Assembly (NCBI GenBank): GCA_964547905.1
Contig: CAZJPN010000050.1
Location: 11,049 to 75,048 of the forward strand
Length of the DNA stretch: 64,000 nucleotides
Source of the DNA: an uncultured Pseudomonadota bacterium
Lineage (GTDB): Bacteria > JAMCPX01
Reading direction: 5' to 3'
The stretch's first letter is position 1, and every line of letters starts with the position of its first letter. The position numbers and the translations under genes were made by a program. Positions 355 to 53,821 of the stretch are shown here, one piece after another. The notes under the pieces are model-generated. The model saw only the letters and a list, made by a program, of their open reading frames with translations, was not told the DNA's origin and did no database searches.

Positions 355-425
355 TTTAAAAGATTGAAAATTAAAGATTCAAAATTAAAAATTCAAGATT
401 AGAAATCAAATTCAAAATTCAAAGC
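355..425. repeat. Degenerate 7-8 bp tandem array (AAGATTC/AAAATTC units), copy 1
   Basis: aagattgaaaattaaagattcaaaattaaaaattcaagattagaaatcaaattcaaaattcaaag. Shares the core TTAATTTTGAATCTTTAAT (reverse complement) with arrays at 4745-4800 and 51041-51121. Confidence 0.6.
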
Positions 426-1088: not shown

Positions 1089-1484
1089 CTACCATCTTCC
1101 TCTGTCATTCCCACGCAAGCATGCCCTCGACAACAATCGGGGGTGGGAAGCCAGCCTTACCTCTGTCATTCCCACGGAAGTGGGAATCCAGTCTTTCGTT
1201 AAATCTTTCCAATCTGGATTAAATCCTTCTCTTAATTCTATCTTCCATCTTCTATTCCATTTCTTTAATTGTTTTTCTCTTAATAATGAACTATTTACAT
1301 CATTGGTTTGTTCAAAATATACTAACGTACGAACATCATATCGCTTTGTAAAACCTTCTACAATACCTTCTTTATGTTCATATGTACGCCTTATTAAATC
1401 ATTAGTAACACCAATGTATAAAGTTCCATTTCTTTTACTTGCTAATATGTAAACAGAATAGGAGTTGGTCATAAATACTCTCAT
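1089..1484 (-). CDS. GIY-YIG nuclease family protein; the C-terminal ~30 codons of the ORF are encoded by hairpin repeat DNA
   Basis: YILASKRNGTLYIGVTNDLIRRTYEHKEG matches the GIY-YIG catalytic core. The tail …SVGMTEVRLASHPRLLSRACLRGNDRGRW is a translation of the flanking TGTCATTCCC…GGGAATCCA repeats. Confidence 0.75.
   Translation of the reverse strand: MRVFMTNSYSVYILASKRNGTLYIGVTNDLIRRTYEHKEGIVEGFTKRYDVRTLVYFEQTNDVNSSLLREKQLKKWNRRWKIELREGFNPDWKDLTKDWIPTSVGMTEVRLASHPRLLSRACLRGNDRGRW
1099..1193. repeat. Two tandem hairpin repeats, CTCTGTCATTCCCAC-[28 nt or 4 nt loop]-GTGGGAA(T/G)CCAG
   Basis: 1099-1160 is ctctgtcattcccacGCAAGCATGCCCTCGACAACAATCGGGGgtgggaagccag. 1161-1193 is ctctgtcattcccacGGAAgtgggaatccag. 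Both are perfect stem-loops (TTCCCAC/GTGGGAA). Confidence 0.75.
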
Positions 1485-1512
1485 GGATTCCCGTTTTCAC
1501 GGGAATGACAGG
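1480..1512. repeat. Inverted copy of the TGTCATTCCC…GGGAATCCA hairpin repeat
   Basis: Reverse complement is cctgtcattcccGTGaaaacGGGaatccatgag. It lies in inverted orientation to the 1161-1193 copy, so the pair brackets the GIY-YIG ORF. It also supplies the last codons (…SCHSRENGNP*) of the upstream beta-propeller gene. Confidence 0.7.
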
Positions 1513-3469
1513 ATAATAATTTTTTCCTCTGCTCTATACCTATTATTGCTATCCCAAATATTACTATAAACAAAAAGAGTGTAAAAAACTTCTGCATCAT
1601 TGTTCCATACAGTACAACCATGCTCCCGAATACAAATGGTTTAAGCATAACCCGAACAATGGCCCTTAATGTATCATGCCCTGCTATAAAATGGGCGATT
1701 GGCGGGCTTGTTGCATAGTATACCTTTACAAATAACCTTCCAGCAGCATTCTTTAAAAGCACTTTGTTTCTAAACTGCCTCAATACCCACACATCAAATT
1801 GATCATAAGAACCATAAGCTGCTGTTGCAATAAAACAATTGCCCTTCTGACCCGCAAGCTCAGCCGGGCTCGGAATATGGACGGGTGTAACTGTCACAGT
1901 GTTACTCAATCCACTTGTATTGCCTGCTAAATCGTACGTGATAAGGCCTATATAATAGAGTGTTCCGTTGGTAAGCCCGTTCAGCGTATAAGACGTGGTA
2001 TTGCCTGCATCAGCAACGGTTGAGGGAAGACTGTTTATGTCGAAGGGTGATGTAGAATAATATACAGAGTATCCGCCAACGTACTCAGAGGGACTTGCTG
2101 TCCAACTCAAATAAGCCTTGCTCTCATTGGGTATGGCAGAAAGATTGGAAGCCGACTGGGGCGGAACAGTTAACAATAAAATACTCGTTGATGCGTATGC
2201 TGTAATGCCGCTCGTGGTTTTTACATATATGTATATCGTGTATGGACCGTTTGCACCTCCTGCAAGATTTATGAGGTCGGAGGCATAAACAGGAAACGTC
2301 ATTGTCTGACCTGCTGTCACAGAGCCGCTTACACCTGGTATTGTGAACCCACTGCCCGGTGTGCCGTTTCCCCCTATCTCTGCCTCATAGGTCCCTGCCA
2401 TGGTTGATGACCATGTAATTGTAGATACATTGTTGTTTGTATCGTTGATAGCAGAAGGACTTGTCGATGCTATTGTTACTACACTCGAGAGTTCGTAAAC
2501 CGTGTTCGTACCGTAATCCGTAACATATGCATTAGCACCATTAGAAGTTATATAAGCTTGCTCAAGGTCTGATCCTCCTAAGGATAAGCTGTTGATTACT
2601 GTGTTATTGGATACCTGAATATAGGTAATGCCGCCTGCCGGGGAATTCATGACCATCAAGGTTGAATTATCAGGTGTGAGTGCAAGGCCGTTTGGATGAC
2701 CGCCCGAAGGCAATGTGATTGTATCCACAACATTATTGGAAGATGTATTTATAACAGAGATTGTATTATCGTTTGCATTGGCAACATACAGAGTTGTTGA
2801 ATTTGGTACTAATAAAAGTGCATCGGGATATGAGCCTGTGGTAATGGTTGTTGTTACTCCGTATGTATTTGTGACATTATAATTATATAGAAACACATTC
2901 ACAGCATTCGATGTGCTGTTCGCTACATAAACCTCAGTTGCACTTGCATTTGCAGCTATGCTTATCGGACCGCCTCCCCATGAATTCACTGTGGTAGAAG
3001 AAGAAGAGCCAAGAGGAAAATAAGACCATGAGTTATCCCCATAATTTGTTACAAATACTGTATTGTATGCTATAGCAATGCCGATAGGGTTATTGCCAAC
3101 CGATACTGTAGATGTGGTAAAATTAGCAGAATTGTTCAGACTCACAGCATAAATAGTGCTGTTCGTTCCATTACTTACATAGCCTGTAACATAAGCTATT
3201 GTCCCATCGGGTGTCACAGCAACCATGGACGGGTTTGTACCGGCAAAAATACTTGTAGTAAGAAGCGTGTTGTTTGAAAGGTTGATAATGTCCACTCTTC
3301 CGGTAAGGCTTTCTGCAACAACGGCATACGTTCCGTTGCCAGCAATACCATAAGGCCCGCTGCCAACCGGTATGGAGGCGACCTTGGTATTGGGAAACGC
3401 GTATGCAATACCGGTGTACATTATTAAACAAACTATTATTATGAGTATATTCGGAATCCATTTACCCAT
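1481..3469 (-). CDS. Secreted/cell-surface YVTN-type beta-propeller repeat protein with an FN3-like region and a CFIATAAYGS-type C-terminal domain plus a C-terminal TM helix
   Basis: Start moved to the internal ATG (MGKWIPNILIIIVCLIMYTGIAYA↓F signal peptide) with AAGAGGGG upstream. Repeated …YVTN/YVAN…G…V…D blocks are present. C-terminus reads GNCFIATAAYGSYDQFDVWVLRQFRNKVLL…YYATSPPIAHFIAGHDTLRAIVRVMLKPFV followed by a hydrophobic helix and a basic tail. Confidence 0.6.
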   Translation of the reverse strand: MGKWIPNILIIIVCLIMYTGIAYAFPNTKVASIPVGSGPYGIAGNGTYAVVAESLTGRVDIINLSNNTLLTTSIFAGTNPSMVAVTPDGTIAYVTGYVSNGTNSTIYAVSLNNSANFTTSTVSVGNNPIGIAIAYNTVFVTNYGDNSWSYFPLGSSSSTTVNSWGGGPISIAANASATEVYVANSTSNAVNVFLYNYNVTNTYGVTTTITTGSYPDALLLVPNSTTLYVANANDNTISVINTSSNNVVDTITLPSGGHPNGLALTPDNSTLMVMNSPAGGITYIQVSNNTVINSLSLGGSDLEQAYITSNGANAYVTDYGTNTVYELSSVVTIASTSPSAINDTNNNVSTITWSSTMAGTYEAEIGGNGTPGSGFTIPGVSGSVTAGQTMTFPVYASDLINLAGGANGPYTIYIYVKTTSGITAYASTSILLLTVPPQSASNLSAIPNESKAYLSWTASPSEYVGGYSVYYSTSPFDINSLPSTVADAGNTTSYTLNGLTNGTLYYIGLITYDLAGNTSGLSNTVTVTPVHIPSPAELAGQKGNCFIATAAYGSYDQFDVWVLRQFRNKVLLKNAAGRLFVKVYYATSPPIAHFIAGHDTLRAIVRVMLKPFVFGSMVVLYGTMMQKFFTLFLFIVIFGIAIIGIEQRKKLLSCHSRENGNP

Positions 3470-3548
3470 TCTTTCAATTCCCCTCTTATGTATATCTTCA
3501 AACAGACTATATCGCCTATCCTGATCTATCACGGCAACTTTCCTCTCC

Positions 3549-3635
3549 TGTCATTGCGGGCAAAGCGAAGCAATCTCTCTGTATTCATGAGATTGCTTCG
3601 TCGTGAAGCCTTCGGCGCCACTCCTTGCAATGACA
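3549..3635 (+). repeat. MITE/REP-like nested palindromic element, copy A (termini TGTCATTGC…GCAATGACA)
   Basis: tgtcattgcgggcaaagcGAAGCAATCTCtctgtattcatGAGATTGCTTCgtcgtgaagccttcggcgccactccttgcaatgaca. It has a 9-bp outer inverted repeat and a 12-bp inner stem. It sits in the spacer between the beta-propeller gene and asd. Confidence 0.75.
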
Positions 3636-3693
3636 ACCCACCAGAACAATCGCTTAAGCAATTGCTCATGTTATAATTTTCCACTCTTTTCTA

Positions 3694-4719
3694 TCACAAC
3701 AATCCGTCCTTTATCATCTGCTCTGCTATCTGGATTGCATTCAAAGCAGCGCCCTTTTTCAGTTGATCACCGACAACCCAGAAGTTTAAGCCGTTCTCAA
3801 CAGAATCATCCTCTCGTATCCTGCCTACAAAACAATCGTCCTGGCCTGCTATGAACAGCGGCATTGGATATTTTTTGTGTGCTGGGTCATCTTCAACCTG
3901 TACACCCGGGAATGCGTTTATAAGTTCTATGGCCTTTTGTCTGGTTATTTTCTTTTCCGTCTGGATATTGACAGCAATTGAATGTGCCCTGAAAACAGGT
4001 ACCCTGACAGTCGTCGGAGAAACCTTTATGGTTTGATCGTTCAATATCTTTCTTGATTCATTAATAAGCTTCATCTCTTCCTTTGTATATCCGTTTTCAA
4101 GAAAAACATCAATATGCGGCAATACATTGAATGCAATCTGATAGGGAAACACCTCTACCTTCAAAGGCTCTCCTTTTGCCCATGCCTTTACCTGAGTCTC
4201 AAGCTCTGCCATTGCCTTTGCACCTGCACCTGAAACTGCCTGATAGCTTGTTGCTACCATCCTTATTATCTTGCCATACCTGTGAAGCGGTGCGGCTCCC
4301 ATGAGTGTGACAATAGTCGTACAATTTGGATTTGCGATAATACCTGTTTTTTTGTACTGCTTTATCGCATCCGGATTTATCTCCGGTACGACAAGCGGTA
4401 TGTCAGGCTCCATCCTGAATGCAGAGCTGTTGTCGATAACGACAGCACCGGCATCAACCGCATTTTTTGCGAACTCCTTGCTTCTTGAAGCACCGGCAGA
4501 AAAAAGGGCTACTTCAACACCGGTGAAGGACTTGGGTCCCAATTCTTCCACTGATATGTTCTCTCCCTTGAATTTGAGGGTCTTGCCGTTTGACCTGCTT
4601 GAAGCAAGCAATTTTAATTCCCTGACCGGAAACTTACGTTCCTCAAGCAACTGCAGCATTACGTTGCCTACCGCACCGGTCGCACCTGCAATAGCAACCG
4701 AATAACTTTTACTTCCCAT
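3694..4719 (-). CDS. asd: Aspartate-semialdehyde dehydrogenase
   Basis: N-terminal AIAGATGAVG Rossmann motif, 341 aa Asd-like length and composition. AAAGGAG RBS upstream. Confidence 0.9.
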   Translation of the reverse strand: MGSKSYSVAIAGATGAVGNVMLQLLEERKFPVRELKLLASSRSNGKTLKFKGENISVEELGPKSFTGVEVALFSAGASRSKEFAKNAVDAGAVVIDNSSAFRMEPDIPLVVPEINPDAIKQYKKTGIIANPNCTTIVTLMGAAPLHRYGKIIRMVATSYQAVSGAGAKAMAELETQVKAWAKGEPLKVEVFPYQIAFNVLPHIDVFLENGYTKEEMKLINESRKILNDQTIKVSPTTVRVPVFRAHSIAVNIQTEKKITRQKAIELINAFPGVQVEDDPAHKKYPMPLFIAGQDDCFVGRIREDDSVENGLNFWVVGDQLKKGAALNAIQIAEQMIKDGLL

Positions 4720-4744
4720 TTTCCTTAACTCCTTTTATTGAATG

Positions 4745-4800
4745 TTTATTCCTTAATTTTGAATCTTGAATCTTTAATCTTTAATTTCTTAATCTTCTAT
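4745..4800. repeat. Degenerate 8-bp tandem array (T-AATCTT units), copy 2
   Basis: cttaattttgaatcttgaatctttaatctttaatttcttaatcttc, between leuB stop and asd start. Confidence 0.6.
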
Positions 4801-5853
4801 CCTTTTCAATATTTCCTCGCCCATTTCCAATGTGGAAACCGGTCTCCCTGTCCCATCGTCTATGTCCTTTGTACGTAAACCGTCATTAAGCGCCTTTTGT
4901 ATGGCATTTTCAATCATATCAGAAAGATCTGCCCTGTTAAACGAATATCTGAACATCATTGCAACAGATGCAATAGTGGCAATAGGATTAGCAATGCCCT
5001 TACCTGCAATATCAGGGGCTGATCCATGGATCGGCTCATATAACCCTTTTTTATCACCGATGCTTGCTGAGGGGAGCATGCCGAGTGAGCCGGTAAGCAT
5101 GGATGCCTCATCACTGAGAATATCACCGAACATATTGTCGGTGAGTATTACATCAAATTGTCCCGGATTCCTTATGATCTGCATTGCACAATTATCGACA
5201 TAGAGATGATCAAGCCTTACCTCGGGATAATGTACTGCAACCTCTTTAACGATCTGTCTCCAGAACATCGAAGTCTCGAGTATATTCGCCTTATCAACGC
5301 TTGTTACATGCTTTTTCCTGAGCATTGCAGCATCAAAAGCCCTTTTTGCAATCCTTTCAATCTCTTTGCGCGAATATACAAGCGTGTTGTAGCCTTTTTT
5401 ATTCTCCTTTATACCTCTTGGCTTGCCGAAGTATATGCCGCCGGTAAGCTCTCGTACAACAAGTATGTCTACGTTGCTTATCACCTCTGGTTTTAATGTA
5501 GACGCCTTTAGCAAGGCAGCATAGGGCTTTGCAGGCCTTAGGTTTGCATAAGTCTTGAGTCCTTCCCTGAGTGCAAGCAAAGCTTTTTCAGGCCTGATTG
5601 AAGGTTCTACAACATCCCACTTCGGACCTCCGACTGCACCGAGCAGTACAGCATCCGCCCTTTTCGCTTCCCTTAGATATTCATCTTTTAATGGTACACC
5701 GTAAATATCTATGCTTGCCCCGCCAATAGGAAATTCCTGCATATCAAGTTTTATATTACCTTTTTTCGCTACTTTTGTAAGCACCTTTTTGGCCTGTTCT
5801 ATGACCTCTGGCCCTATCCCGTCCCCGGGCAATATAACTATCCGTTTCTTCAT
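4789..5853 (-). CDS. leuB: 3-isopropylmalate dehydrogenase
   Basis: [18 protein letters not shown]-terminus. Isocitrate/isopropylmalate dehydrogenase family, 354 aa. Confidence 0.9.
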
Positions 5854-5883
5854 AATATCAACACTCCATTGTATTTTATTTAC

Positions 5884-6387
5884 TTAGCGTACCTTCTTCT
5901 CCATATAATTCATCAATCCGCCTGCACTCAAGAGCTTCTGCATAAACTCGGGAATGGGCGTAGCATTATAAACCTTATTAGTTAAAAGCTCTTTTATGAG
6001 TCCTGTGTCAAGATTAACCTCGAGGGGTGTACCTGTTTTTATCCCGCCGTTGGCGAGATCGATATTCTCATTTACCTCAAGCAAAGGTAATCCTATGTTG
6101 AACGAATTCCTGTAGAATATCCTTGCAAAGCTCCTCGCTATTACCAGTGATATACCGGCCGCCATTATAGCAATAGGCGCGTGTTCTCTCGATGAGCCGC
6201 TGCCGAAGTTTGAACCACCGACTATAATATCGCCCTTTGCCACCTTTTTATAAAAATCAGGATCAATACCCTCCATTGCATGCCTCGCAAGCTCATCGTG
6301 ATCAAAGGTATTGAGATACCGTGCAGGTATAATTACGTCCGTGTCGACATCATTACCAAATACATGTGCATTACCTCTTATTATCAT
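5884..6387 (-). CDS. leuD: 3-isopropylmalate dehydratase small subunit (short archaeal-type LeuD)
   Basis: 167 aa aconitase swivel-domain protein. Lies immediately downstream of leuC in the leu operon. Confidence 0.85.
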
Positions 6388-6412
6388 TCTTTGCCTCCTA
6401 ATTTTTTTATAA

Positions 6413-6488
6413 TGTCATTGCGAGGAGTGGAGCGACGAAGCAATCTACCGGTATTGAGGGATTGCTTCGCCTTTGGCTCGCAATGACA
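6413..6488 (-). repeat. MITE/REP-like nested palindromic element, copy B (inverse orientation to copy A)
   Basis: tgtcattgcgaggagtggagcgacGAAGCAATCtaccggtattgagggGATTGCTTCgcctttggctcgcaatgaca. It has a 12-bp perfect outer inverted repeat and a 9-bp inner stem. Its reverse complement aligns with copy A apart from a ~15-nt indel. It sits in the leuD-leuC spacer. Confidence 0.75.
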
Positions 6489-6513
6489 ATTTAACAATAT
6501 GAGCTGCAAACTG

Positions 6514-7803
6514 TTATCCATTGCCCTTTATTCCCAGTTCCTCGGGTGACCCGATCCTGCCAAGTACAGCAGAAGCAGCCACTATTGCCGGGTTAGCAAG
6601 ATAAACCTCGCTCTTCAGATCTCCCATTCTGCCTTTGAAGTTCCTATTCGTTGTTGCAACAGCCCTTTCTCCCGGTGCAAGAACACCCATATGCCCGCCC
6701 AAACACGGACCGCATGTCGGAGTGCTGAATACTGCACCTGCCTCAACAAAGGTCTCAATCAACCCTTCCTTCAATGCCTGCTGATATATTGTACGGGTTG
6801 CCGGGATCACGATCATCCTGAGGTTCGAATTCACCTTTCTGCCTTTTACAATAGATGCCGCAATCCTTAAGTCCTCTATCCATCCGTTCGTACATGAACC
6901 TACAAACGCCTGATCGATGCCTATCTTGCCGACTTCATCTATGTTTTTTGTATTTTCAGGCAAATGCGGGAATGCTACCTGCGGTTTGAGATTCGAAAGA
7001 TCATATTCATAAACATGTTCATACTTTACATCGGGGTCTGAGGTAAAAACCGTATAGGCCCTCTTTACTCTCTGGTTCACATATTTTACCGTCGTTGGAT
7101 CCGGTATGACAATCCCGTTTTTACCTCCTGCCTCGATTACCATGTTGCACATCGTGAATCTTTCACTCATGTTCATGGCATCGATGACATCACCGGTAAA
7201 TTCCATCGCCTTGTAAAGCGCCCCGTCAACGCCTATCTCTCCTATCGTGAAAAGTATCACGTCCTTGCCGTATACCCAGCTCTTGAGTTTCCCCTTTTTA
7301 TCGCTGTGATATACGAATTTTATTGTAGGCGGAACTTTGAACCATGCCTTGCCGCTCATCATTGCTGCGGCAAGGTCTGTACTGCCTACACCGGTTGAGA
7401 AAGCACCGACAGCACCGTAAGTACAGGTGTGACTGTCTGCCCCTATAACAAGATCACCTGGTGCAACAAGCCCTGATTCCGGCAGTAATGCGTGCTCAAT
7501 TCCCATATTGCCCACCTCAAAGTAGTTTTCAATCCCGGTTTCTCTCGCAAAGTCTCTCAGTATCTTACATTGAATTGCCGATTTTATATCTTTGTTCGGT
7601 GCAAAATGATCCGGAACAAGCACTACCTTGCTTTTGTCAAAAACATTTTTACCGCCGTGTCTTTTAAACTCATCTATGGCAATAGGTGCTGTAACATCAT
7701 TTCCAAGAGCCAGATCCACATTTGCCATAATGAGCTGCCCGGGTTCGACATGCTGTAAATCTGCATGTTGAGCCAAAATCTTTTCTGTAATCGTCATTCC
7801 CAT
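6514..7803 (-). CDS. leuC: 3-isopropylmalate dehydratase large subunit (archaeal-type ~420 aa LeuC)
   Basis: Aconitase-family catalytic domain with Fe-S Cys ligands (…GSCTNG…, …CGPCLG…). 429 aa. Confidence 0.9.
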
Positions 7804-7885: not shown

Positions 7886-9415
7886 TTAAAATCCTTTTAT
7901 CCTATTAGCCTTCTTCTGTTCAAGCTTATTCAAAGCGTTTATGTATGCCTTGGCGCTTGCAACAATGATGTCCGTATCAGAACCGGTGTCGCTCACGGTA
8001 TGACTATCCTCTTCTATCCTGACCGATACCTCGCCCTGCGCATCCGTTCCGCCCGTTATCGCATTTACCTGATATCTCATGAGCCTGCTTTTCGTTTTTG
8101 TTATCGAGGTAATGGTCTTATAAACAGCGTCAACAGGCCCATCACCACTGCCGCTCTCGGTCACAACGTTCCCATCCATATTTATCTTTACCGTTGCTGT
8201 TGGGAGCATATCCGTTCCAGAGGAAACATTCACAGATTCAAGTTTATACTTCTCGGCCCACTTAAGAACCCTGTCCGCTATAATAGCCTCGATGTCCTCA
8301 TCGTAAACCTCTTTTTTCTTATCCGCTATCTGCTTAAAGACAACAAAGGCGTTGTCTATCTGCTCGTCTGTCAATTCATACCCGAGTGATTTTACCCTTT
8401 CTCTGAACGCATGCCTGCCTGAATGCTTGCCGAGAACAAGCATGTTCGAGGGTAAACCTATCGATTGAGGCGTCATTATCTCGTAGGTGAGTTTTTCTTT
8501 CAATACCCCGTCCTGATGGATGCCTGCCTCATGTGCGAACGCGTTTGCACCGACGATAGCCTTGTTCGGCTGTACCGATATACCGGTAATCTGACTGAGC
8601 AGCCTGCTTGACGGATAGATCTGTTCTGTAACGGCATCGGTGTAGAAATTAAAAAAGTTTTTTCTTGTTTTCAATGCCATTACTATTTCTTCAAGAGCAG
8701 CATTCCCAGCCCTCTCACCTATGCCGTTTATGGTACACTCTATCTGTCTCGCTCCTGCCTTAAGGGCTGCAAGCGAGTTGGCAACCGCAAGACCAAGGTC
8801 ATTGTGACAGTGTACGCTGATAACAACCGAATCCGGAGCTTTTATATTCGCCTTTACATATCTTATAAGCTCAGAAAATTCGTCAGGGGTAGTATATCCA
8901 ACAGTATCGGGAATATTTATGGTTGTTGCACCGGCATCAACCGCCGCCTGACATACCTTCATAAGATAGTCTTTGTCGCTTCGTGTTGCATCCTCTGCCG
9001 AAAATTCCACGTCTTTGACAAACCCTTTTGCAAGTGCAACAGACTCGGCGGTCATCTGTATTACCTCATCTCTGGTCTTCTTCAGTTTCGCCTTCAGGTG
9101 AATGTCGGAGGTTGCAACAAAAACATGTATCCTGGGCTTGTCTGCAGATTTCAATGCCTCATAGGCCCTTTCCACATCCGTCCTGTTTGTCCTTGCGAGC
9201 CCTGCAATGGTTATATCCTTTACATTGGAGGCTATCTCTCTAACAGCCTCAAAATCGCCGATCGATGCTATCGGAAAACCGGCTTCGATGATATCCACAT
9301 TCAACCGCTTTAACTGCTGGGCTATCTTTAACTTCTCCTGTATGTTCATACTTGAACCTGGAGATTGTTCTCCATCTCTTAATGTTGTATCAAATATTAA
9401 AATTCTATTATTCAT
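7886..9415 (-). CDS. leuA: 2-isopropylmalate synthase
   Basis: Start set at MNNRILIFDTTLRDGEQ, preceded by a strong AAGGAGG RBS 7 nt upstream. HMGL-like TIM barrel plus LeuA dimerisation domain. The 29-codon upstream extension in the ORF track was rejected. Confidence 0.9.
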   Translation of the reverse strand: MNNRILIFDTTLRDGEQSPGSSMNIQEKLKIAQQLKRLNVDIIEAGFPIASIGDFEAVREIASNVKDITIAGLARTNRTDVERAYEALKSADKPRIHVFVATSDIHLKAKLKKTRDEVIQMTAESVALAKGFVKDVEFSAEDATRSDKDYLMKVCQAAVDAGATTINIPDTVGYTTPDEFSELIRYVKANIKAPDSVVISVHCHNDLGLAVANSLAALKAGARQIECTINGIGERAGNAALEEIVMALKTRKNFFNFYTDAVTEQIYPSSRLLSQITGISVQPNKAIVGANAFAHEAGIHQDGVLKEKLTYEIMTPQSIGLPSNMLVLGKHSGRHAFRERVKSLGYELTDEQIDNAFVVFKQIADKKKEVYDEDIEAIIADRVLKWAEKYKLESVNVSSGTDMLPTATVKINMDGNVVTESGSGDGPVDAVYKTITSITKTKSRLMRYQVNAITGGTDAQGEVSVRIEEDSHTVSDTGSDTDIIVASAKAYINALNKLEQKKANRIKGF

Positions 9416-9543: not shown

Positions 9544-10416
9544 TTAAATAGTTAGTTTCTTTGCTCCCCTTTGGGGGAGTAGGAGGGCGATCAGACCGGA
9601 TGCCGTATAAATAATGAATATGGCAAACAACATTTTGATCGGCTCAAGCACGATCAAAGACATCATTATTATTGCAAGCATCAAAAATGAAACAGGTTTT
9701 TCCTTTATCATGTCCGCATTTTTAAAACTTTTATATTTTACAGTGCTTATCATGAGCAGTCCGGATATAAGGACAAGCAGCAGTATTGTAAAATGCTGTG
9801 AGAGTATAAAATCGATCGGTTTGTTCAATATAAGATCAATCGGGTGCTTTATCATGGAAGAAAACAATGCCTTCTTATCTTCGTCAAGACCTGTTGACGG
9901 TGTAACATAGAGTAAAATAGTCGTCGTCACGAGTCCTGCTGCAGCAGGAGACGGCAGACCGTTGAACACACTCTTTTCTACAGTATCTATTTGAGTATTA
10001 AACCTCGCCAGCCTTATTGCAGCGCATGCTACATATATAAATGCAATGACCCACCCAACCCTTCCAAACGAGCTCAGTGCAATAGAATATGCGAGAAATG
10101 CCGGAGCCACACCAAACCCTACAAGATCAGAGAGCGAATCATACTCAACACCAAAAGCACTCGTCGTATGGGTAAGCCTTGCCACCTTGCCGTCAATGCC
10201 GTCAAAAAAGATGGAAAATATAATAGCAATTGCACCATAGAAATAGCTGCCGTTAAATGTCGCTATAATTGAATAAAAACCGGAAAACAGGCTTGCAGAG
10301 GTAAACAGGTTTGGCAGTATATAAATGCCCCTGCTCATACCCCTTGCCGGTCTCTTCTCTGGCACGGTCTCTTTTTCGTAAGTCTTGTTTATTTCTACAA
10401 TATTTTTTTCATTCAT
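9544..10416 (-). CDS. pssA: CDP-diacylglycerol--serine O-phosphatidyltransferase (CDP-alcohol phosphatidyltransferase family)
   Basis: DG.DG..AR…SAFG.E.DSL.DLV.FGVAP motif and multiple TM helices. Translationally coupled to psd (ATG 3 nt after the psd stop). The start codon is uncertain. Confidence 0.8.
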   Translation of the reverse strand: MNEKNIVEINKTYEKETVPEKRPARGMSRGIYILPNLFTSASLFSGFYSIIATFNGSYFYGAIAIIFSIFFDGIDGKVARLTHTTSAFGVEYDSLSDLVGFGVAPAFLAYSIALSSFGRVGWVIAFIYVACAAIRLARFNTQIDTVEKSVFNGLPSPAAAGLVTTTILLYVTPSTGLDEDKKALFSSMIKHPIDLILNKPIDFILSQHFTILLLVLISGLLMISTVKYKSFKNADMIKEKPVSFLMLAIIMMSLIVLEPIKMLFAIFIIYTASGLIALLLPQRGAKKLTI

Positions 10417-10419
10417 ACA

Positions 10420-11055
10420 TTACACAGCTATTATGGTTTCGCCTGCTTTTACTTTATCACCTATACGTACCTTAATCTCTCTATCAGGTTCAACATAAAC
10501 GTCAAGCCTTGAACCAAGTTTAATCATACCATATCTTTTACCGGTTGTCATCTTAGATCCCTTATCCGCATTGCACACTATCCTTCGTGCAACAGATCCC
10601 GCAATCTGCACGGCCACAAGCTTTCGCCCCTTTTCATCGTTTATAAATAATGCCGTCTGTTCGTTCAGTTCCGATGCCTTGTCGGCATAAGCAACATGAA
10701 ATATACCCGGGTTATATTTCTTCTCAATTACAATTCCGTGAACAGGAAACCTGTTTACATGCACATTAAACACGGACATAAAAATACTGAGACACACAGC
10801 GTCTTTTCCCATAAATTGTTCATACTTGTTGTTTTTTGCAATCTTAATAACTGTACCGTCCGCAGGAGAGATAACATAATCACCACTCGGGGTATTCCTC
10901 TCTGGATTTCTGAAAAACAACATCACAAATACCAACAACAATATCGAAGGTATGTACAAAATATATCCATGCCTTATCAGGAACCCTATAACTGCGAGTA
11001 TAAACAAAAATCCTATGTATACCCATCCGTCTTTTACAATAAAATTATTGTCCAT
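10420..11055 (-). CDS. psd: Phosphatidylserine decarboxylase proenzyme (short archaeal-type family)
   Basis: 211 aa with an N-terminal TM segment. Conserved LGS self-cleavage motif (…MIKLGSRLDVY…). Gene order pssA-psd. Confidence 0.8.
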   Translation of the reverse strand: MDNNFIVKDGWVYIGFLFILAVIGFLIRHGYILYIPSILLLVFVMLFFRNPERNTPSGDYVISPADGTVIKIAKNNKYEQFMGKDAVCLSIFMSVFNVHVNRFPVHGIVIEKKYNPGIFHVAYADKASELNEQTALFINDEKGRKLVAVQIAGSVARRIVCNADKGSKMTTGKRYGMIKLGSRLDVYVEPDREIKVRIGDKVKAGETIIAV

Positions 11056-11156: not shown

Positions 11157-12443
11157 ATGGATAGACCACATTCCAGTAATTATTTTAAAAAGGCTAAAGA
11201 TCTCATGCCGGGCGGGGTCAACAGTCCTGTAAGGGCTTTTAAGGCTGTAGGAGACGATCCTATTGTCGTTACCCGTGCAAAAGGCAACAGGCTTTATGAT
11301 GCAGACGGCAACAAGTATATTGATTATTGCATGTCCTGGGGACCGATGATCCTTGGTCATGGGAATATAAAGGTGCTGAACGAAATAAGAAAGGCTATAA
11401 GGAATGGCACAAGCTTTGGTACACTATGTCCTTCAGAGATAAGGCTTGCAGAGCTTATTTTAGATGCTTACCCTTCGATAGAGCTTGTGCGCATGGTGAG
11501 TTCAGGCACAGAGGCGACCATGAGTGCTGTAAGAGTGGCACGTGCATATACAAAAAGGGATAAGATCGTAAAATTTGAAGGTGGGTATCATGGTCATTCA
11601 GACCAATTTCTCATTAAGGCTGGTTCCGGTTTAACAACACTGGGAACACCATCCAGTCCCGGTGTGCCGGAGGCATTTGCAGCAACGACACGAACGCTAC
11701 CATACAACGATTTAAATGCCGCTCAAAAACTTATTACGGAAAAGTCAAAAGAGATCGCCGCTGTTATAGTAGAACCTGTAGCAGGCAATATCGGTGTCGT
11801 ATTGCCGGATAAAGGATTCCTTGAAACTTTGAGAGAACTGACCATAAAGCATGGTATAGTCCTTATATTCGACGAGGTAATAACCGGATTCAGAATTTCC
11901 CTGTCAGGAGCACAGGATAGATTCAACATAAAACCTGATATGACAACACTCGGAAAGATCATAGGCGGCGGCTTACCTGTCGGGGCTTACGGCGGGAGAA
12001 AAGACATTATGCAGCTTATTTCGCCTGAAGGACCGGTTTATCAAGCTGGAACACTCTCTGGTAATCCTGTTGCAATGGCAGCAGGCATAGCTACTATAAA
12101 AGAGATAAAATCAAAACCATTGTTCTATAAAGATCTGGAGAAAAAAACAGAACATCTCGTGTATGGTTTAAAGGATGCTGCAAGGCTTGCAGAAAAAAAG
12201 ATAACCGTAAACTCAATAGCATCCATGTTCACGCCTTTCTTTACAGACAGACCTGTAAAAGACCTGCAATCAGCCATGACATCCGACACAAAGCAATACG
12301 CCAGTTTTTTTCATCTCATGTTTGAAAGGGGCGTTTATTTACCACCATCACAGTTTGAGGCCCATTTTGTTTCAATGGCGCACACAACCAATGACATAGA
12401 CAGGACGATAAAATATGCATACGAGGCTTTCAAGAAGCTGTGA
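11157..12443 (+). CDS. hemL: Glutamate-1-semialdehyde 2,1-aminomutase
   Basis: PGGVNSPVRAF N-terminal motif. Class-III aminotransferase fold, 428 aa. AAAGGAG RBS. Confidence 0.9.
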   Translation: MDRPHSSNYFKKAKDLMPGGVNSPVRAFKAVGDDPIVVTRAKGNRLYDADGNKYIDYCMSWGPMILGHGNIKVLNEIRKAIRNGTSFGTLCPSEIRLAELILDAYPSIELVRMVSSGTEATMSAVRVARAYTKRDKIVKFEGGYHGHSDQFLIKAGSGLTTLGTPSSPGVPEAFAATTRTLPYNDLNAAQKLITEKSKEIAAVIVEPVAGNIGVVLPDKGFLETLRELTIKHGIVLIFDEVITGFRISLSGAQDRFNIKPDMTTLGKIIGGGLPVGAYGGRKDIMQLISPEGPVYQAGTLSGNPVAMAAGIATIKEIKSKPLFYKDLEKKTEHLVYGLKDAARLAEKKITVNSIASMFTPFFTDRPVKDLQSAMTSDTKQYASFFHLMFERGVYLPPSQFEAHFVSMAHTTNDIDRTIKYAYEAFKKL

Positions 12444-12448
12444 GCGGC

Positions 12449-12477
12449 TTAAACCGTTTAAACTGTTTAAATAGTTA
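12449..12477. repeat. Intergenic copy of the 18-nt GTTTAAAC-centred minisatellite also found inside polA
   Basis: gcggcttaaACCGTTTAAACTGTTTAAATAGTtaag. Shares the exact 15-mer AACTGTTTAAATAGT with polA DNA at ~52781-52795. Confidence 0.7.
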
Positions 12478-12565
12478 AGAAAGTGGATCGCACGACTCAT
12501 CCACCCCAAGCTTCACTTGGGTGCCTGATGGGGACCCCCTTCGCTCGTTACACAAACCCCCTATT

Positions 12566-12590: not shown

Positions 12591-13098
12591 CCTTGCTTGA
12601 TTTCGATTCTTTTTTAAGGGATTTTATATATGCGTTTCTTTTTAAAAGAGATGCATGTTCAATGAGCGTAATACCATTGAGGTGATCCATTTCATGCTGT
12701 ATGACAGTTGCAAGCAGATCCGTAGCCTCCAAAATCAGGTCCTTGCCATTCCTATCATAGCCTTTTATCACAACCCTCGCCGCCCTTTTTACCTCTATCC
12801 GAAAATCAGGTACACTCAGACATCCTTCTTCTAGAGAAGACTCCCCTTCCGATTCAACAATAACCGGGTTTATAACAGCGATGATCCGCCTTTTATCGTC
12901 CCCAATAGGTACATCCGCTACAAACAATGCTTTTTCTTTTCCTACCTGCGTAGCAGCAAGACCTATACCTGATGCAACATGCATTGTCTCATACATATTA
13001 TCTATAAATCCCTGCAGCTCGCCATTTATATCTTTTATTTCTTTAGCCTTACGCTTCAGTATCTTTTCCGGATATCTGTATATCTTGTAGATCGACAT
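12586..13098 (-). CDS. def: Peptide deformylase
   Basis: GIGLAATQVG, EGCLSVPD and HEMDHLNG motifs. Confidence 0.92.
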   Translation of the reverse strand: MSIYKIYRYPEKILKRKAKEIKDINGELQGFIDNMYETMHVASGIGLAATQVGKEKALFVADVPIGDDKRRIIAVINPVIVESEGESSLEEGCLSVPDFRIEVKRAARVVIKGYDRNGKDLILEATDLLATVIQHEMDHLNGITLIEHASLLKRNAYIKSLKKESKSSKD

Positions 13099-51040: not shown

Positions 51041-51121
51041 GCTCAATCTTGAATCTTACGTTTGGAGTTCTTAGTTCTTAGTTCTTAGTTTTTAATTTTG
51101 AATCTTTAATCTTGAATTTCT
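51041..51121. repeat. Degenerate 7-bp tandem array (AGTTCTT x3 then AATTTTG/AATCTTT/AATCTTG), copy 3
   Basis: gaatcttacgtttggAGTTCTTAGTTCTTAGTTCTTAGTTTTTAATTTTGAATCTTTAATCTTGAATTTC, directly after the polA stop. Confidence 0.65.
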
Positions 51122-53821
51122 TTAAGCATCCGCCCATGTCTTGCCGAAACTTATGGATACTTTAAGAGGAACGAGCAGCTTCATCGCATCTTCCATCTGC
51201 TCTTTTAAAGCCACTGAAAATGCTTCGACCTGTTCATCCTTGATCTCAAATAATAGCTCGTCATGTATCTGAAGGATCATTCTTGTGTCAAACCCTTTTC
51301 TTTTTATCATGTTGTCAACCCTGAGCATTGCCACCTTTATCAGATCAGCGGCACTGCCCTGCACAGGGGTGTTGATGGCTATACGCTGATAAGCCGGGTT
51401 ATCAAGCGTTTTAGGAATATACCTGCGTCTGCCGAGGATCGTACCGACATACCCTGTCTGCCGTACACCGTTCAGTATATCATCTATATAAGCCCTTACG
51501 CCCTTGTATTCGTTAAAATACGCATCTATGATAACCTGCGACTGGTCGGGTGATATATTGAGCTGTTTTGACAGCCCGTAAGCAGACATGCCGTACATAA
51601 TGCCGAAGTTTACGACCTTAGCTGTGTTCCTCATCTGCGAAGTAATATCCGGTACCGGTACCTGAAATATGCTTGATGCAGTTGTGGTATGGATATCCTG
51701 ATCATGCATAAATGCATCGATCAACACTTCATCCGATGAAAGGTGTGCCATGATCCTGAGTTCGATCTGAGAATAATCAGCACTCAATATAGAATAACCT
51801 TCATCAGCTATAAACGCCTTCCTTATCATCTTACCATACTCATCCTTGATAGGGACATTCTGGAGATTTGGTTCGCTGCTTGAAAGCCTGCCTGTAGCAG
51901 TGCCTGTTTGTATAAAATGGGTATGTATTCTGTGTGTATGCGGATTCACGTATTCAGGTAATACATCTATAAAGCTGTTTTTAAGCTTTGACAGGTTGCG
52001 GTGTTCAAGCAGGTAATTGATAAACGGATGTTTGTCCTTTAGCTCGTTTAACACCTCATTATCCGTAGAATAACCGGTTTTTGTCTTTTTTACAGGAGAC
52101 AGTTTGAGCTCTTCAAACAGGATAGCAGCTATCTGCTTTGGCGAATCCGGATTAAAAGAGCTTGCTGTATATGACCGCATACCGCCCATAAGACTATCAA
52201 GCTGTTTTTTAAATCGCTCTGACAGCTCTTTCAGATATAGATAGTCAACCTTTATCCCTGTATACTCCATCCTTGCAAGGACTGCTGATAGCGGCATCTC
52301 TATCTTGTAGAATAACGGCTCTAAGGCATCATCCTTCAGCCGCTGTGTGTAAAGTTCTGCAAGCCTTTTTAACTGTAAAGCACATTTTATCAGATAAGCA
52401 GCCCTGCCCTGCCATGCTTGCTTATTATTATTGAGCATATGAGGAGGTTCAAGCCGTTCAAACAGTTCAAGCGGTTCAGGCGGTTTAAACGGTTGCAACG
52501 GTTTAAACTGTTCCAACGGTGCGGGCGGTATTTGCTCTCCGAATTCGGATAATGATAAAGACTCTATAGAATAGCTTTTTGCTTCAGGATTGCAAAGGTA
52601 TGCAGCCAGCTCCACGGAAAACAGTTTTGCATTTACATTAATATTATTTTCCATGCACAATTTATAAACAGCCTTTGCATCATGCACAATCACTCCCGTA
52701 TCATAAGAAAGCACTGTCTTTATGACATCTATAGCCATTGGAATGGTGGAACCGTTTAAACGGTTGGAACTGTTTGAACTGTTTAAATAGTACGCTCTGT
52801 CGGCATGGATGACCATTTCATTGTTTACAAAGAATAAAGAGATCTCTTCTGCACGCCGTATTACATCTTCGATATCTTTAATATTTTTTATCTCTGTATA
52901 ATCAGATTCTTCATTTGATACCTCTGGTTTGCCGAGCTTATCTATAAGCTTATGAAACTCAAGTTCGGAGAACAGCTTTATCAGCCTTGCTCTTTGTTCG
53001 TCCGTAGCATTGCTAAAGACAGAGGGTGGCAATCTTAATGACTCAAATTCTATATCAACAGGTACATCGTGTTTCAATTGTACCAGTGGTTTCGTGATGC
53101 TGTATAATTGTTCTTTTGAATTTATAAGGGAAGTCTTTATACGCTGATTTGTAATCTCATCAATATGATCATAAATGCCGTCGATACTATGATATTTCAT
53201 AAGCAGATCCATTGCTGTTTTTTTGCCGATACCCTGCACGCCCTTTATATTATCGATACTGTCGCCTGTAAGAGTAAGAAATTCGGTCATCTGTAAAGGA
53301 CTTACACCAAATCTCTCAACCACATCATCGGCTGTTATCCATTGATCCTTCATCGTATCCAGCATAACAACCTCGTCAGATACGACAGACATAAGGTCTT
53401 TATCACTACCGATAATAACAACACCGAACCCCGCTGCCTTTGCTCTGTCTGTAATAGTCGCTATAACGTCATCAGCTTCGAACCCCTCCTTGAATATATG
53501 CTTTACTCTCAGAGCATCGGTGATTTCGAAGATATAGGGAAACTGGACTGAAAGGTCATCGGGAGGAGCGCCTCTGTTTGCCTTATATTCCGTATCAATC
53601 TGCTCTCGAAATGTGGGCCCTTTCGAATCGAACACAACCAAAAGGTAATTCGGTTTGTATTTCTCTATAGTTTTTATCAGCATGTTTGCATAGCCGTATA
53701 CGGCATTCGTCGGTATACCCTTTTTATTGGTTAATGGCGGGAGTGCATGGTATGCACGAAAAATATAGGTGCTGCCATCAACGATAAACAGCAGCGGACG
53801 TTTTGCAATTGGAATTGTCAT
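51122..53821 (-). CDS. polA: DNA polymerase I (5'-nuclease, vestigial 3'-5' exonuclease region, polymerase domain)
   Basis: N-terminal 5'-3' exonuclease motifs, C-terminal family-A motifs (…RRAAKTINFGIIYG-like RNTAKVVNFGIMYGMSAYGL…, …QIHDELLFE…). The central region carries in-frame 18-nt tandem repeats (protein LEQFKPLQPFKPPEPLELFERLEP and NSSNSSNRLNGS). Confidence 0.92.
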   Translation of the reverse strand: MTIPIAKRPLLFIVDGSTYIFRAYHALPPLTNKKGIPTNAVYGYANMLIKTIEKYKPNYLLVVFDSKGPTFREQIDTEYKANRGAPPDDLSVQFPYIFEITDALRVKHIFKEGFEADDVIATITDRAKAAGFGVVIIGSDKDLMSVVSDEVVMLDTMKDQWITADDVVERFGVSPLQMTEFLTLTGDSIDNIKGVQGIGKKTAMDLLMKYHSIDGIYDHIDEITNQRIKTSLINSKEQLYSITKPLVQLKHDVPVDIEFESLRLPPSVFSNATDEQRARLIKLFSELEFHKLIDKLGKPEVSNEESDYTEIKNIKDIEDVIRRAEEISLFFVNNEMVIHADRAYYLNSSNSSNRLNGSTIPMAIDVIKTVLSYDTGVIVHDAKAVYKLCMENNINVNAKLFSVELAAYLCNPEAKSYSIESLSLSEFGEQIPPAPLEQFKPLQPFKPPEPLELFERLEPPHMLNNNKQAWQGRAAYLIKCALQLKRLAELYTQRLKDDALEPLFYKIEMPLSAVLARMEYTGIKVDYLYLKELSERFKKQLDSLMGGMRSYTASSFNPDSPKQIAAILFEELKLSPVKKTKTGYSTDNEVLNELKDKHPFINYLLEHRNLSKLKNSFIDVLPEYVNPHTHRIHTHFIQTGTATGRLSSSEPNLQNVPIKDEYGKMIRKAFIADEGYSILSADYSQIELRIMAHLSSDEVLIDAFMHDQDIHTTTASSIFQVPVPDITSQMRNTAKVVNFGIMYGMSAYGLSKQLNISPDQSQVIIDAYFNEYKGVRAYIDDILNGVRQTGYVGTILGRRRYIPKTLDNPAYQRIAINTPVQGSAADLIKVAMLRVDNMIKRKGFDTRMILQIHDELLFEIKDEQVEAFSVALKEQMEDAMKLLVPLKVSISFGKTWADA

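Follow-up and report, generated by a model that had tools for sequence, protein, structure and literature searches.

A stretch of 64,000 nt from an uncultured Pseudomonadota bacterium (GenBank GCA_964547905.1, contig CAZJPN010000050.1, positions 11,049 to 75,048 of the forward strand), analysed as a whole and called the window below, was investigated for two short palindromic DNA elements, A and B, and for their relation to a nearby gene of the Ssn family of GIY-YIG nucleases. The genes of the region all lie on the minus strand, in the order leuA, leuC, B, leuD, leuB, asd, A, a beta-propeller/fn3 protein gene and the GIY-YIG gene (Table 1). A preliminary description of this DNA had placed the two elements in spacers between co-directional genes (beta-propeller/asd and leuD/leuC), and the gene order agreed with this. 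A lies 2 kb and B 5 kb from the ssn gene. Both elements are probably co-transcribed within the operon, to judge by their position only.

Table 1. Coordinates of the elements, genes, hairpins and other repeats of the window discussed in the text.
Feature	Position	Strand	Remarks
Element A	3549-3635 (87 nt)	+	asd / beta-propeller spacer; tagged hairpin units, inverted pair
A, short unit	3549-3579	+	
A, loop	3580-3587	+	
A, long unit	3588-3635	+	inverted
A, side mini-hairpin	~3602-3622		inside the long unit
A, profile match	3550-3634	+	E = 2.9e-12
Element B	6413-6488 (76 nt)	-	leuC / leuD spacer; A-type element, opposite orientation
B, long unit	6413-6449		read on the + strand
B, loop	6450-6456		read on the + strand
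B, short unit	6457-6488		inverted; read on the + strand
B, profile match	6414-6487	-	E = 4.1e-15
Small ORF	3488-3676	+	read-through of A, antisense to the operon
Small ORF	6280-6486	+	read-through of B, antisense to the operon
Ssn-family GIY-YIG nuclease gene	1089-1484, core ~1200-1472	-	Pfam GIY-YIG E = 1.5e-14
NTS-like hairpin CTGTCATTCCCGTGAAAACGGGAATCCA	1484-1511	-	directly 5' of the ssn ORF, overlaps the first ATG
NTS-like hairpin TGTCATTCCCACGGAAGTGGGAATCCAG	1164-1191	+	3' of ssn, inverted relative to the 5' hairpin; ORF call reads ...DWIPTSVGMT
Second 3' hairpin TGTCATTCCCAC-N28-GTGGGAAGCCAG	1103-1154	+	like type, long loop
A/T-rich run	356-411		
A/T-rich run	4737-4792		leuB-asd spacer
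A/T-rich run	51078-51125		
9-nt unit array	12438-12487		short block
9-nt unit array	52447-52803		two blocks ~250 nt apart

Elements A and B of the window

Both elements are inverted pairs of tagged hairpin units, A with the sequence TGTCATTGCGGGCAAAGCGAAGCAATCTCTC-loop-TGAGATTGCTTCGTCGTGAAGCCTTCGGCGCCACTCCTTGCAATGACA and B with the sequence TGTCATTGCGAGGAGTGGAGCGACGAAGCAATCTACC-loop-GAGGGATTGCTTCGCCTTTGGCTCGCAATGACA. The outer arms (TGTCATTGCGrG / CyyGCAATGACA) and the inner arms (CGAAGCAATC / GATTGCTTCG) were seen in both copies, in agreement with the preliminary description. All four units read TGTC-ATTGC...GCAAT-C; the tails were CTC, CCC and CTA, in which only the first C of the consensus CCAG was retained. 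The reverse complement of B aligned to A better than B as given, which puts the two copies in opposite orientation, and on the plus strand the unit order was short-then-long in A and long-then-short in B. The chief difference between the copies was an indel in the side mini-hairpin; such an indel had been noted before at ~15 nt, a size that the alignment corrected to 12 nt. No target-site duplication was found at A or B.

The word GAAGCAATC occurred seven times in the window against 0.69 expected, a count reached by 0 of 100 shuffles; four of the sites are accounted for by A and B, whose arms they form, and the remaining three lay in unrelated, element-free sequence. The word GTCATTGC also occurred seven times (2.2 expected). 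The folds of A and B had energies of -37 to -42 kcal/mol as RNA (z = -3.2 to -8.0 against shuffles) and of -21 to -24 kcal/mol as DNA (z = -5.3 to -6.5). A profile built from 166 unique copies of other organisms matched A on the plus strand and B on the minus strand, with no further match in the 64 kb. Sequence, folds and profile thus confirmed the two nested palindromes, and the alignment and the profile strands confirmed that they are inverted relative to each other.

Intergenic hairpins are common, which would suit chance palindromes or ordinary intrinsic terminators. However, the word counts and z-scores were far beyond those of shuffles, and the profile from unrelated genomes matched A and B with E values of about 1e-12 to 1e-15. 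A terminator scan of positions 3300-6800 returned no terminator-like site at A or B, and no T run follows either stem; on the transcribed (minus) strand, B is followed by TTATAAAAAAATTAGGAGG. Word-count shuffles, terminator scan and profile matches refuted this explanation, and the probability left to it is negligible. In the Rfam search neither A nor B matched a family, whether the gathering threshold or E <= 1 was applied, and consensus copies gave only sub-threshold noise of microRNA type. A literature search by exact sequence words of the element returned unrelated primer matches only.

The two small open reading frames (ORFs) on the plus strand, which had been regarded as artefacts of the elements, were present and read through A and B. 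Their peptides were SLRAKRSNL...RLLRREAFGATPCND and SLRGVERRSNL...RDCFAFGSQ, and neither had a Pfam match. An interruption of the coding 5' end of the beta-propeller gene by A was also considered and was largely rejected. Long N-terminal extensions of the beta-propeller calls in relatives were not conserved and were read-throughs of different hairpin repeats. Most likely, the asd / beta-propeller interval does not code for protein and the beta-propeller gene really starts near 3470.

The element family and its association with ssn genes

Further copies were searched for with a pattern requiring three of the four arms. The element was found in 114 IMG/VR stretches and in at least 120 stretches of one-genome-per-species contigs from many phyla. 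The hosts included Bradyrhizobium, Sphingomonas, Rickettsiales, Chloroflexi, Patescibacteria, cyanobacteria (Nostoc, Okeania and Rivularia), Bacteroidales, Ignavibacteria, Zixibacteria, Planctomycetes and Spirochaetes, and prophage-like contigs were also represented. A search of a plasmid collection with the consensus element gave only three records.

In the 182 full copies, the element consists of two inverted units around a short, host-specific loop. Each unit, of ~30 nt, is made up of a (C/T)GTC tag, ATTGC, a purine-rich core (GAGCGAAGCGAA or GAGGAGCGAAGCGACGAA), GCAAT and a C(CAG) tail; its stem has five Watson-Crick pairs (ATTGC/GCAAT) around a core of 12-18 nt. The core has a short form (GAGCGnAGCGAA) and a long form (GAGGAGCGAAGCGACGAA). 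The tag-to-stem spacers measured 9 and 15 nt, combined as (15,9) in 35 copies, (9,9) in 30 and (9,15) in 30, and the dominant pairings were short/short, short/long and long/short. The fourth arm, left free by the search pattern, was present in 354 of 430 matches, and the base before GTC, equally unconstrained, was C in 80% and T in 19% of 179 copies. The inner stem ran 2.7 bp into the loop, compared with 0.36 in shuffled loops, the conserved CAG/CTG tail being part of this excess. In hosts of 30-72% GC, the GC content of the loop tracked that of the host flanks (r = 0.64), while the arms stayed fixed and the element was nearly sequence-invariant.

The preliminary description had called the elements MITE/REP-like, that is, similar to miniature inverted-repeat transposable elements or to repetitive extragenic palindromes. 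Their REP-like and mobile nature was borne out, and a strict MITE was not. Classical MITEs, as deletion derivatives of a DDE-type insertion sequence whose transposase acts in trans, would likewise be small, intergenic and multicopy, with terminal inverted repeats of 9-12 bp. However, the target-site duplications proposed as a check were missing from most copies: of 179, 168 had neither a duplication nor an abutting direct repeat. What look like 'terminal repeats' are conserved hairpin units in full, common to several phyla, no parent insertion sequence with such ends was seen, and the loop between the arms (5-30 nt) is host-specific and not the remnant of a transposase gene. An origin as classical MITEs is very improbable.

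Many of the IMG/VR contigs (loci L004-L117) resemble alphaproteobacterial prophage or gene-transfer-agent structural regions, judged by ORF translations, with the element in intergenic gaps. In an IMG/VR contig from a GC-rich host (L079, 2900-3450), three paired elements alternate with a second palindromic unit, CATCCTTCGAGGCTCGCTGCGCTCGCACTTCAGGATGAGGG, at a period of ~157 nt; this array is a BIME-like mosaic. In a relative with an 89% identical Ssn (L239, JGI 3300047581), a paired element at 3317-3401 lies in frame within the ORF of truA (pseudouridine synthase). It adds VIARSGDAGDTTKQSRCREIASSLARND and ~20 residues; the loop in the TruA of the window organism is VDKVSGRVKGEKGG. L239 also carries an ssn cassette.

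In Neisseria, hairpins termed NTS (CGTCATTCCCGCGMAVGCGGGAATCYRG) and related hairpins of the Ssn-related motif (SRM) flank ssnA, a GIY-YIG gene of 94 aa, in the layout NTS-ssnA-NTS (Chenal 2025, Nat Commun, PMC11893778). The GIY-YIG gene of the window has the features of the Ssn family, namely a single GIY-YIG domain, the catalytic Tyr/Tyr/Glu and tagged hairpins on both sides. By inspection, VYIL, LYIG and REKQ are present in the protein and hold the residues mutated in PMC11893778 (Y6, Y17 and E64). The protein was 57% identical to an ssnA homologue of N. gonorrhoeae over 89 aa; its motif is EKQLKKWNRRWK, and its homologues carry K/R-W-x-R. The 131-aa ORF call extends into the downstream hairpins, and the closest homologues have hairpin-encoded extensions (MSFPRKRES..., MPAFAGMT..., ...DWIPDQVGNDK). 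NCBIfam and PDB sequence searches with the protein gave nothing informative, and the single window protein as query in viral contigs gave one locus (L238).

The TGTCATTCCC hairpins near the gene have ATTCCC stems, a sister type and not the A/B type. They are exactly of the NTS/SRM type, for example TGTCATTCCCGTGAAAACGGGAATCCA. The 5' hairpin had a DNA fold of -7.8 kcal/mol (z = -4.3) and was 82% complementary to the nearer 3' hairpin at 1164-1191 (inverted repeat I11), and the sole match of the published SRM search motif in the window was at 1483-1510. Judged by its sequence, the cassette is of the published NTS-ssnA-NTS-like layout. The beta-propeller gene call ends within the 5' ssn hairpin (...CHSRENGNP*; 1481-1511). 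At the same spot in L250, a relative described below, a solitary hairpin is found at ~12930-12960 (...YHSRENGNP*) with no ssn, and both are missing from the relatives L247 and L249. In L247 the end of the beta-propeller gene is followed by ACAGAGGAAG...GATAAAAAG, a sequence that recurs to the right of the ssn cassette of the window.

A metagenome scan was made for one outer arm (TCGCAATGAC) followed within 15-45 nt by a degenerate pattern of the N-terminal coding region of Ssn, and at least 120 loci were obtained. Among the loci listed, a hidden Markov model (HMM) of Ssn matched in 115, in 111 of them within 120 nt of the arm. By the profile, the element adjoined Ssn upstream in 96 of the 111 and downstream in 74, on both sides in 68; the total of metagenomic loci at which an Ssn gene adjoins an A/B-type element is at least 111. 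The region 3' of the stop codon, unconstrained by the pattern, held element words in 86 of 94 loci and the full pair in 38 of 94, mostly 1-30 nt past the stop. The Ssn proteins of these loci had a median identity of 48% to the window Ssn and of 49% to the N. gonorrhoeae protein. [AG]GSR followed EKQxK in 80 of 96 readable proteins, and most of the others were close variants. Taken by their motifs, the Ssn proteins of A/B-type loci form a group of their own, EKQIK[AG]GSR. Protein group and hairpin type co-vary, as predicted for a cognate relation of enzyme and site. The earlier suggestion of one superfamily with the hairpins of the GIY-YIG gene agrees with the literature and was upheld by the common (C/T)GTC tag, AT stem start and C(CA) tail, by which CGTC-tagged REPs (PMC3733652) and NTS/SRM hairpins (PMC11893778) are defined, and by the A/B type flanking Ssn genes.

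The ssn genes of plasmids carry other cognate hairpins, which in Azospirillum are inverted pairs on both sides and in Planktothrix are of a sister long-core type (GTCATTCTGAG...GAAGAATC). The Planktothrix gene (L255) sits between MmeI and DISARM drmA genes, and its hairpin is missed by the SRM motif. Long-core hairpins of the form (C/T)GTCATTCTGAg...CGAAGAATC occur both at these ssn flanks and in the relative L245 at 8556-8586 and 9701-9830 (leuD-leuB spacer).

The architecture of A and B also matches that of REPINs mobilised by RAYT (REP-associated tyrosine transposase, IS200/IS605 type), in which two inverted REP units and a spacer form a long hairpin (PMC3116915 and PMC3337134). The lack of a target duplication is as in single-strand transposition. 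However, the tag is (C/T)GTC and not GTAG, and neither a RAYT nor another transposase gene was found flanked by CGTC-tagged units (PMC3733652); the gene actually flanked by the element is the GIY-YIG gene ssn. Rough clustering of the ORF neighbours of 234 copies, made without a Pfam check, gave no candidate mobilising enzyme and no recurrent transposase-like family, and the largest clusters looked like phage or gene-transfer-agent structural genes and spurious GC-rich ORFs. Junction patterns in viral contigs gave one false positive and otherwise zero matches. Mobilisation by RAYT can be given very little credit.

History of the sites in relatives

Relatives with LeuD identities of 79-90% keep the gene order of the operon. 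They are, by LeuD identity, L245/L246 (GCA_027322025.1; 90%), L247 (88%), L249 (86%) and L250 (79%). At site B (leuC/leuD), the window has the full element. L245/L246 have an orthologous diverged element with the same flanks and orientation, in which one outer arm is mutated and the side hairpin has a 12-nt insertion; L247 and L249 have a 12-nt spacer, and L250 an unrelated 51-nt spacer. At site A (asd/beta-propeller), the full element of the window is represented in L245/L246 by a decayed half (long unit and loop) and is absent from L247, L249 and L250. The ssn cassette, present in the window, lies on another contig (L240) in the L245/L246 genome and is absent from L247 and L249; in L250 the solitary hairpin stands there. 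Other operon spacers in the relatives hold other tagged hairpins.

This pattern is one of gain, decay and loss of interspersed repeats, not of a conserved operon RNA. The preliminary description had named an ancient structural RNA as the outcome if the genome held only two copies and the spacers with their elements were conserved in distant relatives. In the 64-kb window, the profile built from unrelated copies found no copies but A and B; hundreds of copies occur in other genomes, and the elements are absent at their sites in close relatives, with the empty sites, also looked for as that description had proposed, in L247, L249 and L250. Such variation in presence between closely related genomes speaks against an RNA conserved from ancient times.

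A and B could also be primarily cis-acting operon RNAs, such as mRNA stabilisers, processing sites or modulators of translational coupling, at leuC/leuD and at asd and its neighbour gene, their nature as DNA repeats being secondary. Both stand in a row of co-directional genes and would be part of its transcript, their RNA folds are very stable, and in a comparison of the window with L245 the inner arms of B have diverged less than its flanks. REPs are generally known to stabilise upstream mRNA, a role also raised in PMC3733652. However, A and B are oppositely oriented relative to transcription, and three relatives with the same operon (L247, L249 and L250) lack both, with 12-nt or overlapping junctions among them. 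Across many phyla the element is found in unrelated settings, among them prophage-like contigs and even the truA ORF; an Rfam match is absent even at E <= 1, and a terminator-like T run is missing. SsnA is, moreover, inactive on RNA (PMC11893778). A primary function as cis-acting RNA is unlikely.

At site A, a different GC-rich hairpin, GGGGCGAGGCAnnGCCTCGCCCC, was found in L247 (~10845-10875), L249 (~10795-10820) and L250 (~10935-10965), where it is read by gene callers as ...CRGEALPRP... in an extended N-terminus. Two further kinds of repeat were seen in the window. The A/T-rich runs, found in several intergenic spacers, consist of short units of the AAAGATT / CAAGATT / AAAATT type and are 77-86% mutually complementary or identical (families D2, I1 and I4). 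The arrays of a 9-nt unit (GTTTAAACG / GTTCAAACn) occur in direct and inverted form (families D1, I3 and I6).

Proposed mechanism and comparison with known systems

With a rough probability of 0.75, A and B are non-coding REPIN-like DNA repeats, a hairpin-pair sub-type of the CGTC-tagged REP / Ssn-related superfamily and putative substrates of a cognate Ssn. What was observed in this study is how the element is built and distributed, that its copies lack a target duplication, that it accompanies a distinct Ssn group, and at which sites relatives have it or not. Cleavage of the A/B type by Ssn is proposed by analogy to SsnA and NTS of Neisseria, tag-dependent single-strand cutting having been demonstrated by others for the sister type.

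When the region becomes single-stranded, in replication, transformation or conjugation, the strands could fold. A cognate Ssn of the EKQIK[AG]GSR group would then bind the unit and, if it acts as SsnA does, nick the folded single strand at a distance of a few bases 5' from the tag, and the element would spread via single-stranded DNA. Pairs that stand alone, like A and B, would be non-autonomous relatives of ssn cassettes, deriving from them or depending on them. In the lineage of the window, the elements inserted into spacers of the operon without leaving a target duplication, and in a relative they are undergoing decay. At the RNA level, the hairpins of A and B may at most alter the stability or processing of the mRNA.

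Several results weigh against this interpretation. A unit by itself makes a weak hairpin by nearest-neighbour DNA energies (-1.5 to -4.5 kcal/mol, z about 0), and the nested fold, which is the favoured one, leaves the GTC tags base-paired and not free. GIY-YIG enzymes are hydrolytic nucleases, and we know of no strand-transfer chemistry among them; cutting alone by a hydrolytic nuclease does not explain copying. An ssn gene stood beside randomly sampled copies at only one of 234 loci by phmmer and an HMM of 120 homologues, and a general adjacency of solitary copies to ssn was rejected; at that one locus (L189) the Ssn is of the AGSR kind and an A/B-type pair follows it. The 64-kb window lacks a gene for an [AG]GSR-type Ssn, its sole Ssn having the other hairpin type, and A and B could be fossils. 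B and half of A are common to the relative at 90% LeuD identity, which makes neither insertion recent, and the conservation of the inner arms of B could have selection on RNA as its cause. Finally, the SRM motif HGTCWYN(0-2)YYVSBRHN(0-5)WNVSBRGN(0-2)RNCYNB had no match to any A/B unit or to the short or long consensus.

The SRM motif also missed the ssn-flanking hairpins of Planktothrix, Spirosoma and S. meliloti; it misses real ssn-flanking hairpins and is therefore a search heuristic that under-detects. By sequence, each of the four units in A and B has an unpaired GTC directly 5' of the stem and a C directly 3' of it, and the repeats flank Ssn-family (cd10448-like) GIY-YIG genes in the 111 listed loci with Ssn at <=120 nt from the outer arm. 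By this analogy, the A/B type would belong functionally with the Ssn-related tagged hairpins, while it lacks both the SRM motif and a stem of 8-9 bp with a loop of 4-5 nt. The core of the unit contains GCGAAGC, which is reportedly, from work of Hirao and colleagues, an unusually stable DNA mini-hairpin.

A further proposal, to which we give slightly less than even odds, is that the EKQIK[AG]GSR Ssn has the ATTGC-type pair as its specific substrate and its non-autonomous offspring, in a REPIN/RAYT-like system that spreads horizontally across phyla via single-stranded DNA. If so, its spread would reach intergenic spacers, prophage regions and even ORFs, and the published SRM motif would be blind to it. 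Ssn-linked repeats would be far more pervasive than reported, and the recognition unit may be the pair and not the single hairpin. Chenal et al. proposed tools for cutting single-strand DNA, for which the new pair of Ssn and site is a candidate. In other respects the biology of A and B is ordinary, that of two interspersed repeats in operon spacers. For annotation, such elements cause spurious small ORFs and false N- or C-terminal extensions, such as the 131-aa Ssn call, the beta-propeller ending CHSRENGNP and the truA insert in L239.

Compared with Rickettsia palindromic elements (RPEs) and with dRS3 of Neisseria, the A/B type has different stem sequences, and RPEs are longer and composite. 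In-frame insertion into protein genes is said, after Ogata et al. in 2000, to be the hallmark of RPEs, and the in-frame copy within truA in L239 is a point of likeness. RPE-4, RPE-6 and dRS3 are themselves CGTC-tagged units (PMC3733652).

REPIN-RAYT systems (Bertels and Rainey 2011, PMC3116915) resemble the A/B type by two inverted REP units with a spacer as one long hairpin, by a single-copy nuclease-type gene between like repeats and by the lack of a target duplication. They differ in their GTAG tag and in an HUH Y1 transposase with a covalent intermediate, whereas GIY-YIG enzymes act by hydrolysis. They are described as vertically inherited and lineage-specific, whereas the A/B-type element is nearly identical across phyla.

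In the published description of CGTC-tagged REPs, the CGTC tag (frequently TGTC) is unpaired, the stem measures 8-9 bp and begins with A-T pairs, the loop has 4-5 nt and the tail is CCA; most are head-to-head inverted dimers, and no dedicated transposase was found (Di Nocera 2013, BMC Genomics, PMC3733652). The A/B type is like them in its CGTC tag (TGTC in many copies), in AT at the first two stem positions and in the CCA tail. It is also like them in occurring mostly as inverted dimers with spacers of 20-100 bp or shorter, in its abundance in Alphaproteobacteria such as Bradyrhizobium, and in its position between genes that are co-directional or convergent, a few copies being intragenic. It differs in that the four described families have the 8-9-bp stem and the 4-5-nt loop, neither of which the A/B unit has, and in that no associated enzyme was found for them in PMC3733652. 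The ATTGC type is set apart from the described families by their text description there, and may fall in the group that this source mentions as 'Bradyrhizobium CGTC-1 with other loops'.

Only as single-stranded DNA is the hairpin bound by SsnA and three homologues, which cut a few bases upstream; cutting requires the GTC, binding requires the C that follows the stem, and SsnA is inactive on duplex DNA as well as on RNA (PMC11893778). The A/B unit shares with NTS/SRM the 5' (C/T)GTC tag, the stem start ATT and the C(CAG) right after the stem, as well as hundreds of interspersed copies across phyla and copies on both sides of a single-domain GIY-YIG gene of ~95 aa. It differs in having five Watson-Crick pairs and a conserved purine-rich core of 12-18 nt, in contrast to a stem of 8 bp and a loop of 3-5 nt. 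The A/B type almost always forms an inverted pair, and pairing is absent from the text of PMC11893778; its Ssn partner carries EKQIK[AG]GSR, compared with EKQLKKWNR in Neisseria SsnA. In 2013 the CGTC-tagged REPs were left without an enzyme, and in 2025 Ssn was shown to cut beside one sub-type; in the window, both sides are found within 6 kb. New here is a paired, near-invariant sub-type that the published motif does not capture and that flanks its own group of Ssn genes.

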